NCBI GenBank assembly: GCA_043798915.1
Contig: JAZDOG010000012.1
Location: 1-50,319 of the forward strand
Length of the DNA stretch: 50,319 nt
Source of the DNA: Pseudomonadota bacterium
GTDB taxonomy: Bacteria > UBA10199 > 2-02-FULL-44-16 > JAAZCA01
Reading direction: 5' to 3'
This document shows positions 17,501 through 23,500 of this stretch, piece after piece (position 1 is the first letter of the stretch; each line of letters opens with the position of its first letter). Made by a program: the position numbers.

Positions 17501-20500
17501 AGGGTATTTAAGGTGGTTTGATCGGTGGTTTAGACCCCGAACTTCTTCTCCATCTTCTCGTAGTAATCGATCGCCCTTCTTATGTACGCGCGCTTGGCCA
17601 TGTAGTCGCCGGGGTAGAAGCTGCGCTTGAAACCGTAGATGATGATGTCCTTGAGCTTGCGCGGCTCGATGGGGAAATTCCTGACCGCGAGCTCGATCTC
17701 GTCGGTGACGCTCGTGTGCGAGACGAGCCTGTTGTCGGTGCAGAGGGTCAGCGAGAGGCGGTTCTTGAACATATGCGCGAACGGATGTTTTGAGATCTCC
17801 TTGAGGCCCGGCACCGTCTGCATGTTGGAGGTCAGGCAGACCTCGATGCAAGTGCGGCGGTCGGCGATGTACTGCCACAGTTCCCTCACGTAGCGGCTGC
17901 GCTCTATTGCGGTGGGAAGCTCCACCATGTCCTCGTCGAAGAGATTCGTGCCGTGCCCTATGCGGTCGGCGTGGCAGTCGGTGATCGCCTGAAAGATCGA
18001 GACTGGGCCGTAGGCCTCGCCAGCGTGCACGGTCTTCTTGAAAAAATGTTTGACCGCGAGGTCAAAGGCGCGCTTGTAGTCCTCGGCCGGATATCCTCTT
18101 TCGGCCCCGGCGATGTCGAAGCCGGTGACGGGCAGGCCCTTGTCGTTGCGGACGTCGATCATCGTCCGGACGAGATCCAGCGCCGCGAGGCCGTAGAGGT
18201 CCTCCTTGGGCATGTGGGGATGGATCCCCATCAGCTGCCGGTAGTATCCGGAGTATTCCGGCGTGAACATGCGTATGGCGCATCCTATTATGCCGTAGTC
18301 GAAGGGCGGTTCGCTGCCGTCCCTGATCTCGGGGCGCGCGTTTATCTCCTTCTTGGCCCGGGAGAGCCCCAGGTCGACGCTTATGATCGTCTCGTCGAGC
18401 GAGAACGATTTGTGCGCGTGGCGCTGCGGCGCGAACCGCGGCTCGACGTAGCGCACCCCTTCCTCGAAGTTGTCCAGCGCAAGCTCGTAGGCGATTCTCT
18501 CGAGCGCCTCGGGCGTCACCATCACCGCGGCCGTGTACAAAAAGCCCAGCAGGTATTCGTCCAGGTCCGCATATACCTTTTTGAAGACGAGCTTGCTTAA
18601 GCCCTCCTCCGTGTAGGAGGGGAGCTCCACCTTTTGCTCCTTCGCGAGCTCTATGAGCGTTGCGAGGCGAAGGCTTCCGTCGAGATGAACGTGGAGGTCC
18701 GTCTTCGGGATGGCCCTGATGAATTCTCTGGTGAACTTTGTCATGATGCGGCTGCCTGCCTTTTCAGCCACTGCCAGCTTTTGTCCACGCCTCGCTGAAC
18801 GACCGCTATCTGTTCGTCGTTCATGTGGCGGAAACGGCCCTGCATCATTAGATAGTCTTTGAGCAGGGTGCCCTGCGGCTCCATGTTGATGGTGTACTTC
18901 TCGCCGTCCTCGACTTCGTATATCGGAAAGATCCCGCAGTCCACCGCGGCGCGCATGGCCTCCACGGACCTGGCCGAGTCGATCTTCCAGCCGGCGGTGC
19001 AGGCGGCGAGTATGTGGATGAACCTGAATCCCTTGATCGCCTTCGCCTTGGCGAACTTTGCCATCAGGTCGTGCGGGTGCGCGGAAGTCGTCGTGGCTAG
19101 ATATGGTATCCCGTGCGCCGCGAGTATCCGGTCGATGTTCTTCTTGGCGCCCTCCTTCGGATGGTCCGTGGGCGTGGTGGTGGTCCAGGCGTATTCAGGC
19201 GTCGCGCCGGAGCGCTGGATGCCGGTGTTCATGTACGCCTCGTTGTCATAGCAGACGCATATGACGTTCTCGTTTCGCTCGGCCGCCGCGGAGAGGGATT
19301 GCAGGCCGATGTCGAATGTGCCGCCGTCGCCGGCCCAGCCCATCACCTGGGTGAGAGTCTTCCCCTGGATGTCCAGCGCGGCGCGCACGCCCGAGACCGC
19401 AGCTCCCGTTGTCTCGAACGCGGTGTGCATGAGCGCCGTCTTGAGGCACGAATATGGAAACGGCCCCGGGATCACCGCCCAGCAGCACGCCGGTATGACG
19501 ACCACCGTGTCTGGCCCCATGGCCTTGAGGGCCATGCGCATCGCCATCGTCGCGCCGCAGCCAGGGCAGGCGAAGTGCCCCGAGGTCATGAACTCGCCCT
19601 TTTCATAATTCTGCTGTGCCGTTCCCTGGCCGAAATTTTGCGGTTCAGTTCTCATTTTTTTAACCCTATCCACACCGGCCGCTCCTGGCGGTCGTGGTCC
19701 TTCGTGTACGCATATGCCTCGGAGATCGACTCCGGCGTGATGTCGCGGCCGCCCAGCCCGATGTGGAAGTCGAAGACCTCCGGCATTGTCGGCACGCCCG
19801 CGAGGGCTGCCCTGATCTCCTGCGCCCAGATTCCGCCGGCGCCGTGGCTGATGTTGCGGTCGAGCACGGCGAGTTTTTGAACTTTCCTGTTGCCGGCCAG
19901 ATTTCCGACGGCCTCGCGAAGCGCCTCGGTCGGGAACGGCCTGAAGAGGCGCAGCTTGCACAGGCCCACCTTCTCGCCCGAGGCCCTCAAGGATTCGACC
20001 GCCACGCGCGCGGTGGATGTGGTCGACCCGCTGGTGACGATGAGCGTTTCGGCGTCCTCGGCGTGGAAGAGCTCGATCATGTCGTAGTGGCGTTTGAATC
20101 GCTTTGAAAAATCGCGCGCCACTTCGCCGAAGGTCCTCTTCGACTTCTGGTGGGCCTCCTCCATGATGTAACGGAATTCCATGTAATGCTCCGGCGCCGT
20201 GAACGGATTGAGCGTGCGGGGATGTTCTGTATCCAGGCGCATCGACGGCTTGAACGAAGGGAGGAAGCGGTCGACGTCCTTCTGGTCGGGAATCTCCACG
20301 GGCTCATATGTGTGCGAGAGGATGAAGGCGTCGTAGACGACCATCACCGGCAGGTTCACGATCTCGGCGAGCCTGTAGGCCATGATGACAGTGTCAAGCA
20401 CTTCCTGGTTCGTCTCGCAGTATATCTGTATCCAGCCCGTGTCGCGCTGTGCGAGCGAGTCGGTCTGGTCGCTCGTGATGTTCCATCCCGGCGCCATGGA

Positions 20501-23500
20501 GCGGTTGACGTTGCACAGGACTACGGGCAAGCGCCCGTAGGCCGCCCAGAAGAGGAGTTCGTGCATCAGCGCCAGCCCCTGCGACGACGTGGCGGTGAAG
20601 GCCCGGCAGCCGGCCTGCGCCGCGCCGATGCAGCAGGCCATCGCTGAGTGCTCCGACTCGACCTTGATGAACTTTGCCGCCAGCTCGTTCCTCGCGCACA
20701 TCCCGGAGAGCTCCTCCACGATCTGCGTCTGGGGGGTGATGGGGTAGGCGGCGATGACCTGCGCGCGAGAGAGCCTCACGCCGTGCGACGTCGCATGGTT
20801 GCCCATCAATACTTCTGTAGTAGGCATGCCTGACCTCTCAAATCGATGTCGGTTCCTCGACCATCTCCATCGCTGCGCGCGGACACTCCTTCGGGCAGAT
20901 GCCGCATCCCTTGCAGTAGAAGTAATCGATCTCGAAGCCGCCCGCTTTTTTGGCGATGGCGACGTCCGGGCAGTAGATGTAGCAGTTGTCGCACTCGGTG
21001 CATCTGCCGCAGTGGAAGCAGCGGGAGAGTTCAGAGGCTTTCGTCTCAGGCGAAGGCGCTATGTGGACCTCCGCGAAACCGTTTCCCAAGAACCTCTTCT
21101 CCACAGAGATCGACGGATATGCGTTCGGCTCCGAGCGGGTGAAATAGGCGGGATTCAAGTCGCTGAATTTGGCCACGCAATTAAGGCGCGTTATCTCGGA
21201 GGTGGTGGCCGTCCGCGGCTCCGCGCCGTTTCTGAGCTTCAGGTAGGCGGATATCAGCACCGCGCCTGTGTCTGCGACGCGGATCTGCTCGAAGATGGTT
21301 TCGAAATTCTTGCCCCTCAAGTGGCAGTCGATCGCGATGGCGCTCTTTTTTCCGCTTCCCAGGGCCTCCACGACAGTGCGCGGCTGCGCTATGAAATCGC
21401 CGCCGGCGAAGACGTTTTGCCATTCGGTCCGGCCGCCCGGCCGCGTCTTGACCGAACCGTTTTCTATCGGAAGCGTGGATGGGATGATGGAGTTGTCTAT
21501 CCGCTCGCCGATGGCGGTGATTATCGTGTCCGCGTCGAACGAGACGAGTTCCCCTTCCACCGGCACGGGCTCCCTCCTCCCGGAGGGATCGGGGTCGCCG
21601 AGCTTCATGCGCTGGCACTCGAGGCCTGTCGCCCGGTTGGCCGCCGCGATGACGCGCTTTGGTCCGAGGAGCATCTCGACCGACACGCCCTCGCTTTCAG
21701 CCTCGCGCACTTCGTCGTCGAACGCCGGCATCTCGACGCGGGTGCGCCGGTAGATGATGCGGACATCGCTCCCAAGCCTCCGCGCCACGCGCGCGGCGTC
21801 GATCGCCGTGTTGCCGCCGCCAACCACCAGGACGCGTTTTCCCAGAGCCGGCGGTTTGCCCTCCGCCGTTTTTCTCAGGAACTCGAGGCCAGGGATGACG
21901 CCAGCCGACTTCTCGTCCGGAACTCCCATCGCCCTCGACTTGTGAGCGCCGGTCGCCATGAAGACGGCCGCGTAGTCCTGGCGCATCGCCTGCATCTCCG
22001 CGGCGTCGCGGACCGCCTTGCCGAGACGGAAATCGATGCCCATGCCTTCAAGCCTCTCGATCTCGCGGTCGAGAATCTCGCGGGGCAGGCGGTATGACGG
22101 TATCCCGTATCGGAGCATTCCGCCCGCGAGCGGCATGCGCTCGAAGACGATGACGCTGTGGCCTAGTCTCTTCAAGTGATATGCGCAGGCGAGTCCGGCC
22201 GGCCCGGCGCCTATCACAGCGACGTTCTTGCCGCTTGCGGGGCAGAAGGGCTTAGCGGCGGGGAGTTCGCCTCCCATAGCATCGCCCAGGGTGCGCTCGA
22301 GGAGCTTTATGTTGACCGACCCGCCCATCTCACGCCGGTTGCAGCCGTCCATGCAGGGATGGAAGCAGACCCGCCCCATTATAGAGGGGAAGGGGTTTTC
22401 GATCGTGGCGGCATCCCACGCCTCGGGGAGCTTGCCAGTCTCCATGAGCCTTATCCATGATTCGATGTCGTTGGATGTGGGGCATGAATGCTGGCACGCC
22501 GGGGTGCGCTCGACATACCGAGCGCGGAGATAGCGCCACGTCCCGGTCTCGTTCCATTCCGTCGTCGCCATGGCTGCGGTTACATACGGCATCTGCGATG
22601 CGCCGGAGATGGTGAGCGGCAGAGGGTGTTTGGTCTGGCGCTTCATTCGGAAAATTTTACCTCTTCAAATGCCTCCATGGCGGCCTTCGCATTTGCCTCG
22701 GCCTTTATCGGAACTCCCTTTTTGATGGCCTTTGCAACCGCATCCATCGAACAGATGCCGGTGATGCGGCAGAATGCGCCGATGATCGCGGTGTTGACGA
22801 TCGGGCTCATGGCGGAGCCCAGCCTGTTCCGCACGGCGATGCTGCTGGCGTCGACGGAGGCGAGCTTGAAGTTTGCGAGCTTCTGGATTTGCGAGAGCTC
22901 TTCCGGGGTCTTCTTCGTGTTGATGAGCACCCAGCCTTCGCCCTTGAAGCCGTCGAACGCGGCCTTGTTGCCCAGGAGCGTCGGGTCGAGGATGATCAGG
23001 TGGTCCGGCTGATATATCTGGCTGCGGAGGTTGATCCTCAAGTCATCGATGCGGACGAACGCGGTGACAGGCGCGCCGCGGCGCTCGACGCCAAAGGAGG
23101 GAAATGCCTGAACGAACTTGCCCTCGGCGAATACCGCAGTGGCCAGGATCGTGCCGCCTATGACGGCTCCCTGGCCACCCCTCCCGTGGAAGCGAATCTC
23201 GATCATCGACGCGTACCCCCCGTCGGAGGGCCCCTTCATACCCTATAGGGAGATGTTGTCAAACCAGAATTCCTGCTATACCGGGTCGCTGTGGACGGTG
23301 ACGTGGGCCCCGGGGATCTTGCGCTGGATATCCGCGATGATGGCCTCCGTTATGGCGTGGGCCGATTCGAACGTGGTATCGCTGTCCACCTCGAGATGAA
23401 ATTCTATGTACTTCTCGCCGCCCACCCGCCTTGTGCGGAGCCGGTGGTAGCCGCAGACGAGCGGTTTGCCGTTGATGCAGCTGTCTATTGCGGCGAGAGC

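Follow-up and report, generated by a model that had tools for sequence, protein, structure and literature searches.

We analysed a window of 50,319 nucleotides (contig JAZDOG010000012.1 of assembly GCA_043798915.1, a Pseudomonadota bacterium) and found that four consecutive open reading frames on its minus strand, separated by short gaps or overlaps, make up a porC-X-porA-porB operon, as the initial annotation had proposed. The intergenic distances are -4 nt for porC/X, +10 nt for X/porA, -4 nt for porA/porB and -4 nt for porB and the add gene that follows. The features, with the parts of X assigned by homology, are:

22643..23206, minus strand: porC/vorC, gamma (CoA-binding) subunit; translation from the ATG at 23206 yields 187 aa, and from an alternative upstream ATG at 23239 (minus strand) 198 aa
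20838..22646, minus strand: X, putative delta subunit with an inserted FAD/NADP cassette, 602 aa (NF009410, 553 bits)
22506..22589, minus strand: X residues 20-47, PorD/VorD N-terminal arm with TGxWR (T34-R38), identified with hhalign
21006..22505, minus strand: X residues 48-547, GltD-type flavoprotein in circularly permuted form, identified by structural match and motifs
20838..21005, minus strand: X residues 548-602, PorD 2[4Fe-4S] ferredoxin domain, identified by homology to free PorD
19652..20827, minus strand: porA/vorA, alpha subunit, 391 aa, with an intact YPITP motif
18741..19655, minus strand: porB/vorB, beta subunit, 304 aa, with intact TPP-binding and cluster cysteines
17530..18744, minus strand: add, adenosine-deaminase-family gene (PF00962), overlapping the porB stop

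The PorC protein scores 196.7 bits with TIGR02175 against a cut-off of 81.1 and also matches PF01558. The ORF list holds a 406-aa GTG form of porB that overlaps porA, and the correct start probably lies elsewhere. The add gene is probably co-transcribed with porB; an add-like gene with 58-69% identity also follows porB in loci L022, L023, L024/L068, L062, L063 and L072. A scan for promoters and terminators gave no excess over shuffles. The genome's ordinary pyruvate enzyme, which has a free porD, is encoded by another por operon, located on contig C57, and the porA product described here is 46% identical to its PorA. TIGR02179, the PorD model, has two matches genome-wide, namely X and the free porD on C57, indicating that the porC-X-porA-porB operon has no separate porD; this had also been claimed initially.

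Over residues 21-598, X matches NF009410/PRK12771 with 553.2 bits (cut-off 516). The domain matches reported initially were reproduced, with GltD/Nfn-type models aligning at approximately residues 48-450 and TIGR02179 at 545-598. The TIGR02179 score is 59.5 bits for the whole protein and 62.6 bits in the genome search, around a cut-off of 60.05, and the insertion hides model positions 1-22. An AlphaFold2 model of X has a mean pLDDT of 93 and a pTM of 0.91, and X contains ligand sets for four [4Fe-4S] clusters. Cysteine ligands and Glu117 are invariant among 119 X homologues. The alignment considered for covariation between the arm and the ferredoxin domain has a depth of Neff 87.

We compared the N-terminal residues of X with the arm of PorD using hhalign, which gave a probability of 93.6 and a score of 32.9, versus scores no higher than 11.8 with 21 other windows of X and no higher than 14.4 with 40 column shuffles. 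Likewise, the first 43-46 aa of 5/5 porC-flanked homologues from other families match solely PorD/VorD models among the 18,950 searched, and the arms of two proteins encoded in C-A-B-X order match PorD_Arch (E values of 1e-5 and 5e-5). The N-terminus of the X from the window, taken alone, has no NCBIfam match past the filter; the arm is identified at the level of the family. The TGxWR motif is present in 114 of 120 X homologues and in 110 of 120 free PorDs. A simple arm HMM, trained on 120 sequences closely related to the C57 PorD, gave weak scores (median about 3 bits, in a tally that includes two non-family proteins), so we based arm homology on hhalign and NCBIfam. At the other end of X, the ferredoxin domain shares 52% identity with the free PorD of this genome, aligns with PorD with an hhalign probability of 99.8, has the delta subunit of 9BT4 as its best PDB match, and contains eight invariant cysteines.

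We then modelled X together with PorB. The predicted complex scores 0.91, versus 0.00 for the best of three controls, and passes a mark that is also passed by 116/157 solved complexes and 2/215 mismatched pairs, although the pass may stem from likeness to the solved four-subunit enzymes 9BT4 and 5C4I. Separate runs share at least 94% of contacts, with a partner pLDDT of at least 88. The predicted interface comprises X residues 23-38 in the arm and residues 550-595 in the ferredoxin domain, the latter making the main contacts, such that X is predicted to bind PorB through both PorD halves. By homology, X is thus a PorD/VorD delta subunit interrupted by an inserted cassette, in the order PorD arm, flavoprotein, remaining PorD. 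A simple end-to-end fusion was rejected on the split-PorD homology and on the predicted use of both halves at the interface. The initial annotation had described a flavoprotein followed by PorD; that order is corrected here. Its proposal that a fused flavoprotein occupies the delta slot stands insofar as split-PorD homology, synteny and predicted PorB docking place X in that slot, but the flavoprotein is inserted rather than simply fused.

The flavoprotein cassette contains an FAD motif at residue 146, an NAD(P) motif at 276 and YRR at 299-301. Its proximal cluster is ligated by C55/C94/C98/E117, and its distal cluster would be ligated by C51/C102 plus C543/C546, the latter pair located past the flavin domain. 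The best structural match of X is NfnA (9BOV; Z 40.5, rmsd 2.1 Å, 469 residues, model residues 44-555), whereas NfnL/NfnB structures align only to residues 445-450. The cassette is therefore of the permuted StnC/NfnA type and not of the NfnL type named initially. NfnL identity was rejected on this structural comparison and on the search for an NfnS-type partner (PF10418), which was not found in the 97% complete genome and was found in 6/14 controls. GltD identity was rejected on scores below the cut-offs (TIGR01317, 175 of 448 bits; TIGR01318, 256 of 483 bits). DsrL identity was rejected given that DsrC was not found in the 97% complete genome (dsrAB lay outside that search) and that the gene sits in a por operon. 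The YRR motif is kept in 110/119 aligned X homologues and is a marker of NADP use in DsrL-2 and NfnB (PMC7596348); its presence points to an NADP preference of X. In the nearest structures, NfnA and StnC, the corresponding module is an NADP(H) site, and in StnC it is non-bifurcating. In line with the earlier proposal, X most likely passes electrons to a pyridine nucleotide, and YRR points to NADP.

With respect to substrate, the beta subunit scores 365 bits with PRK11864 (VorB-type) versus 331 bits with PRK11865 (PorB). This VorB minus PorB difference is +34 here and +37, +33 and +42 in three relatives, versus -64 for the C57 enzyme. The alpha subunit is ambiguous (VorA 402 bits, PorA 404 bits, top score PorA_Arch), and neither alpha nor beta passes an equivalog cut-off, so the substrate is uncertain. 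On balance the core scores as VOR-like, a type associated with branched-chain 2-oxoacids. Pyruvate as a default substrate is disfavoured by the VOR-like scores relative to the C57 enzyme, and the initial description of a counterpart of a pyruvate enzyme is not supported by the scores of this core.

Full-length X orthologues are present in 11/12 same-family genomes, as first reported, and our recount found X-type genes in 20/92 other genomes of the phylum, one of them frameshifted (G018) and one in contig fragments (G020). In 20/20 of these X lies directly upstream of porA, in agreement with the position noted earlier, and in 8 phylum genomes X is the sole TIGR02179 match. We also examined 80 metagenome loci, 8 of which had no usable context and were left out of class counts; one, L105, with porB upstream and a nifJ fragment downstream, was assigned by hand to the C-A-B-X class. 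The arm is kept in 51/51 loci beside a delta-less por core and in 0/21 beside nifJ, which carries its own ferredoxin domain, but the nifJ-linked relatives form one clade, so this correlation is phylogenetically clumped and rests on about three independent losses. A separate porD was not found in any of these metagenome loci, and in L128 porC is fused to X. In the cultured Thiocapsa bogorovii, a candidate for the C-A-B-X order, the entries LT988_13550-13560 are annotated as gamma, alpha and beta, with no delta among them. The split-delta layout is widespread.

We propose, with a probability of roughly 0.7, that PorC, X, PorA and PorB form a self-contained 2-oxoacid:NADP+ oxidoreductase, a four-subunit enzyme whose electron exit is wired to NADP+. 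With TPP on PorA/PorB, the enzyme would decarboxylate a 2-oxoacid and acylate CoA; the substrate is most likely of the branched-chain kind that arises when Val, Leu or Ile is degraded. The two electrons would pass singly from the PorB cluster through the two PorD-derived clusters of X to the distal and then the proximal cluster of the cassette and on to FAD, which would donate a hydride to NADP+ at the YRR site. The cassette corresponds to a GltD whose chain is opened between the first and the second cysteine motif, an arrangement that would place the CxxC (C543/C546) three residues ahead of C549 of PorD and so join both wires. Since the flavoprotein is inserted in the delta subunit, the likely acceptor is NADP+ and not free ferredoxin. 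We infer that the complex forms in the cell, that the reaction runs in this direction, and that the enzyme has the stated substrate, NADP preference and a non-bifurcating FAD.

An unlikely alternative is that X is the delta subunit of an enzyme whose main product is reduced soluble ferredoxin, with the cassette as a tethered ferredoxin:NADP+ reductase, which would receive only some of the electrons or would work in both directions on the ferredoxin pool of the cell. The intact PorD ferredoxin domain fits this, as does the cost in energy to an anaerobe of placing -500 mV electrons onto NADP+. In addition, nifJ-adjacent relatives have lost the docking arm and still keep the whole flavoprotein, implying that the protein is probably able to act in trans. 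However, the adjacency of C546 and C549 suggests that the cassette is joined at the site where the distal cluster of delta would hand its electrons to ferredoxin, and the cassette decays along with the core in genomes G007 and G012, where X lacks YRR and the arm Trp and PorA/PorB lack catalytic motifs. It is distinctly improbable that the FAD bifurcates as in NfnB, with NADPH yielding a low-potential electron for reductive carboxylation of acyl-CoA and a high-potential electron for some other partner. Glu117 and Arg186 are invariant (119/119) and by alignment match the two residues tied to bifurcation in NfnB, the cluster-ligating Glu and the Arg near FAD N5 (R201), whereas StnC and NfnA carry Lys at the Glu117 site, but non-bifurcating proteins have these residues too, Glu in GltD (7MFM, 2VDC) and Arg in StnC, so neither residue is diagnostic alone; moreover, no conserved redox gene adjoins the operon in the compared loci, and the PF10418 search revealed no NfnS-like gene in the genome. 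The reading of X as a stand-alone oxidoreductase, DsrL-like or glutamate-synthase-like, that happens to lie in the operon is hardly credible: X shares the DsrL domain order, and a true dsrL from genome G083 also passes PRK12771 (579 bits), but DsrC was not found in the genome, the arm is present in 0/120 DsrL-like proteins, the PorD ferredoxin profile gives those proteins a median of about 20 bits versus 62 for X, and taking X away would leave the operon with no delta.

The proposed NADP+-reducing enzyme resembles several known systems. PorCDAB / VorDAB (9BT4) has homologous gamma, alpha and beta subunits and the same gene order, and both halves of its delta are present in X, which differs in bearing a 500-residue flavoprotein insertion. 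Eukaryotic PNO and PadEFGHI likewise couple 2-oxoacid oxidation to pyridine nucleotide in one enzyme. PNO, however, is a cytochrome P450 reductase domain fused to a single-chain PFO, and the phenylglyoxylate:NAD+ oxidoreductase PadEFGHI has a separate flavoprotein subunit; neither is a PorD insertion. Pad model names appear among the profile search results. The 2-oxoglutarate:NADP+ oxidoreductase (KGOR) of Azoarcus evansii has a two-subunit Kor core, whereas the core here is of the Por/Vor type. KGOR uses a GltD-family subunit (Ebenau-Jehle 2003, as cited in PMC10134865); like the enzyme proposed here, it combines a 2-oxoacid oxidoreductase with a GltD-family Fe-S flavoprotein, and the initial idea of a bacterial NADP-linked counterpart thus has a precedent. 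The presumed homologue of its flavoprotein in Aromatoleum aromaticum EbN1, which we infer to be the orthologue of the purified subunit, is encoded upstream of the genes for an alpha and a beta subunit and shares the permuted CxxC, but it is 29% identical to X, lacks the PorD arm and YRR, scores below the PRK12771 cut-off (389 bits) and falls outside the X group in the tree. X also branches apart from two KorC-like proteins in cassette trees. Given that the KGOR flavoprotein is divergent, armless and outside the X group, it would represent an independent recruitment.

StnC/NfnA (StnABC, NfnABC; 8OH5, 9BOV, 9N5U; PMC10482914) has the same permuted FAD/NADPH cassette inserted in an Fe-S host domain, but there the cassette sits in a NuoG/HydA-type domain, which is coupled to a bifurcating HydBC module, whereas the host in X is PorD, and Lys stands at the proximal cluster in place of Glu. 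A Stn-like locus on contig C90 of this genome could also supply NADPH, which counts against our main reading. DsrL shares with X the layout Fd / FAD / NAD(P) / linker / Fd and the NCBIfam family, and in DsrL-2 the YRR motif; the two lie on one side of the same cassette-tree branch (support 97 and 99). DsrL has DsrAB as its partner, however, and its arm and ferredoxin are no longer PorD-like. The DsrL study excluded por-linked DsrL-like genes (PMC7596348), a rule under which X is not a DsrL; por-linked genes of this kind had thus been noted. The trees do not show DsrL nesting among the delta-type proteins: a 50-row quick tree gives a polytomy, and a 23-row tree puts the delta types on one side with a support of 14. 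Our literature searches turned up no description of the delta-insertion architecture or of its link to DsrL. Tentatively, PRK12771 may at its root be a PorD with a mobile permuted NADP cassette, making VOR-type (C-X-A-B) and POR-type (C-A-B-X) ferredoxin-independent NADPH producers in many bacterial groups, possibly reversible by flavin bifurcation, with DsrL as an armless descendant.

These results give a testable function to a widespread family labelled 'NAD(P)-binding protein', 'glutamate synthase' or 'delta subunit', and help to tell true dsrL, a sulfur-metabolism marker, from por-linked look-alikes. They also point to a reusable form of Fe-S rewiring in which a permuted NADP cassette is inserted beside a host cluster, likewise in StnC/NfnA, and offer a compact enzyme linking keto-acid oxidation to NADPH supply. 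If our reading is correct, many genomes scored as reducing ferredoxin when they oxidise pyruvate or branched-chain keto acids would yield NADPH instead, and the energy and redox balances of metabolic models would change.

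The operon under study is transcribed from the minus strand in the order porC-X-porA-porB, where X is a 602-aa protein occupying the slot of the delta subunit, PorD:

22643-23206, minus strand: porC, passes TIGR02175
20838-22646, minus strand: X, 602 aa, passes PRK12771 (553 bits against a cut-off of 516)
19652-20827, minus strand: porA, matches four-subunit POR/VOR models
18741-19655, minus strand: porB, matches four-subunit POR/VOR models
17530-18744, minus strand: adenosine-deaminase-family gene, directly after porB

Successive genes are spaced by -4, +10, -4 and -4 nt. X matches GltD/Nfn-type models at residues 48-450 and TIGR02179 at residues 545-598 (59.5 bits). 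The genome, which is 97% complete, holds two POR alpha genes and two TIGR02179 matches, one of each per por operon; the second operon, on contig C57, has its own free porD of 93 aa. The factual points of the initial annotation are borne out. Six other genomes of the class also have the adenosine-deaminase-family gene 3' of porB, and the two whose core is degenerate are among them. At 14538-17403 the window also carries a convergent pair of ORFs, of 427 and 525 aa, that matched neither Pfam nor NCBIfam models at the thresholds applied. The longer of them contains an HExxH motif and resembles a metalloprotease.

Full-length X is present in 11 of 12 genomes of the same family and an X-type gene in 20 of 92 other genomes of the phylum (one frameshifted, one in fragments), counts that come from kin and are hence non-independent. 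X lies directly upstream of porA in all 20, and an intact porC lies 5' of X in 16; two loci are at contig ends, G020 has a partial porC and G012 has none there. X is the sole TIGR02179 match in eight genomes (G006, G009, G011, G018, G049, G083, G085 and G086). Among the best 120 database homologues, source names point to Myxococcales, Deltaproteobacteria, Thermodesulfobacteriota and Fimbriimonadia, and a cluster look-up adds Chlorobi. In G018 (L014/L022), X is frameshifted near residue 235, and in G020 (L020) half of porC is joined to X at its residue 206, through either a deletion or a misassembly. Two loci, L062 (G007:C115) and L063 (G012:C19), retain open frames, with PorA lacking YPITP, PorB lacking the TPP-binding motif and X lacking the arm Trp; the Fe-S cysteines persist. 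The G012 X has FAG at the YRR site, and no porC lies between the CDF gene and X. These operons are possibly a pseudo-enzyme or electron-carrier relic.

X had been described as a simple fusion of a flavoprotein to PorD. The family consensus, however, begins WNxTGTWRYLRPxY, and the solved PorD 9BT4 has NKTGGWRNFRPVY immediately ahead of its first cysteine; TGxWR occurs in 114/120 X homologues and 110/120 free PorDs. Profile comparison of X residues 1-48 with this PorD arm gave a probability of 93.6 and a score of 32.9; as controls, 21 other windows of X scored 11.8 at best, and 40 column shuffles 14.4. Among 18,950 models, the N-terminal 43-46 residues of all five porC-flanked homologues tried matched only PorD/VorD models (E 4e-4 to 0.08), and the free PorD arm behaved likewise; the N-termini of the window's X, a DsrL, a nifJ-linked protein and a degenerate copy matched none of the 18,950. 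This arm homology places the first PorD strand before the flavoprotein and the PorD clusters after it. Thus, X is a delta subunit split by an insertion, a real feature, and its delta role is better supported than first stated.

A predicted complex of X (12-600) with PorB (12-302) reached 0.91 over three runs, and three controls gave 0.00 at best; contact agreement between runs was at least 94% and partner pLDDT at least 88. Of 157 solved complexes, 116 attain the mark used, as do 2 of 215 mismatched pairs. On the X side the interface comprises 23-34, 37-38, 550-595 and a single cassette residue. Because similar complexes have been solved (9BT4, 5C4I), this result indicates that the pair resembles known complexes and that the insert can be accommodated sterically, not that X and PorB bind.

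Contexts were read in the best 80 of at least 618 confirmed metagenome loci. Forty-three have porB-X, often as porC-A-B-X (L105 placed by hand), 21 X-nifJ, six porC-X-porA-porB, one X-porA-porB, and one porC fused to X ahead of an A:B fusion; eight gave no usable context. Among these 80, TGxWR is present beside the por core in 51/51 and beside nifJ in 0/21, and no free porD was found. The two-gene form (L128:3338-7699) encodes a 757-aa porC:X protein. The X-like/nifJ operon recurs (L027, L028, L031 and the 21 metagenome loci), often followed by a dihydroorotate-dehydrogenase-like gene; the L028 copy lacks YRR. Plasmid records of Methylovirgula and Phenylobacterium have an X-like gene ahead of nifJ, and that of Aromatoleum EbN1 has a more distantly related gene ahead of korA/korB. 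In quick trees of the cassette, a branch separates the Stn-like and KorC-like proteins from a side that holds all por-linked, nifJ-linked and DsrL-like ones (97; a smaller set gives 99), with nifJ-linked genes a single clade inside the C-A-B-X group. Tree and contexts together point to about three arm losses (nifJ type, DsrL, G007/G012), each falling where the partner is not an intact delta-less core.

The AlphaFold2 model of X (pLDDT 93, pTM 0.91) most resembles NfnA and StnC (9BOV, Z 40.5, rmsd 2.1 A over model residues 44-555); NfnL/NfnB and GltD align only up to about 445-453. At its front X lacks the CxxC that ordinary GltD/PreT carry at the N-terminus; the motif reappears as RCFHC (C543, C546), three residues ahead of PorD C549, a displacement shared with Stn-like proteins of the phylum. 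By homology, the moved pair would ligate the distal cluster. Together with the invariant C51, C55, C94, C98, C102 and E117, the pair completes two cassette clusters, making four in X overall. DsrL-like proteins (P0265-P0384; cf. G083 L070:5139-6809) have RCxxCGxCxxC ahead of the C-terminal ferredoxin in 118/120, so the distal-cluster cysteines that PMC7596348 reports as replaced at the DsrL N-terminus may sit there by permutation. In G083, a member of the phylum, the genes dsrC-dsrA-dsrB-dsrL-dsrM-dsrK, as named from ORF reading, are clustered (L070, C153:10000-21500), and their DsrL is of the YRR type. YRR, which PMC7596348 links to the use of NADP by DsrL-2 and NfnB, occurs at X 299-301 and in 110/119 homologues. 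The FAD of X might alternatively bifurcate, as Glu117 and Arg186 match NfnB; however, Glu117 is also found in GltD and Arg186 in StnC, whose FAD is non-bifurcating (PMC10482914), and no NfnS-type gene was found in the 97%-complete genome.

We favor, at a probability of roughly 0.7, a por-operon mechanism in which X would serve as an NADP-linked delta subunit. NAD(P)-linked 2-oxoacid oxidoreductases are already known, PNO and Pad being precedents. PMC10134865 counts a subunit of the Azoarcus 2-oxoglutarate:NADP+ oxidoreductase as a member of the GltD family, and the PMC7596348 text sets aside, without further study, DsrL-like genes found in linkage with subunits of pyruvate/ketoisovalerate:ferredoxin oxidoreductase. 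In the open-access literature searched, PRK12771 appears in one paper, only as a hydrogenase-typing marker. The accessible parts of PMC10839748 and PMC10892978 hold nothing on a por-linked X system beyond a Thiocapsa gene table; neither a PorD insertion nor an assay was found in searches of the open-access literature, and subscription papers and supplements may contain one.

For the beta subunit, VorB-type minus PorB scores are +34 bits in the window operon, +33 to +42 in relatives and -64 on C57, whose PorB is above the PorB cut-off; for the alpha subunit, VorA minus PorA is -1.5, +12 to +31 and -95, respectively. These differences tilt toward a VOR-like window operon and mark the C57 operon as the ordinary pyruvate enzyme of the genome. 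The enzyme carrying X is probably VOR-type, and the pyruvate:NADP reading proposed initially better suits C-A-B-X relatives, as the one such locus tested has POR-like scores. A gene for a 3-keto-5-aminohexanoate cleavage enzyme lies before the C57 operon (G000:C57:50369-57489), and NuoE/F/G-like genes come after it. Contig C90 (G000:C90:13047-17841) encodes a Stn-like NuoEF fusion and a HydA/GltD protein that lacks the FdhF domain, a locus that could be an alternative NADPH source. An ADP-forming acyl-CoA synthetase-like gene is present in the window's genome, which at 97% completeness gave no match to G6PD or PntB; this combination fits an amino-acid fermentation needing NADPH.
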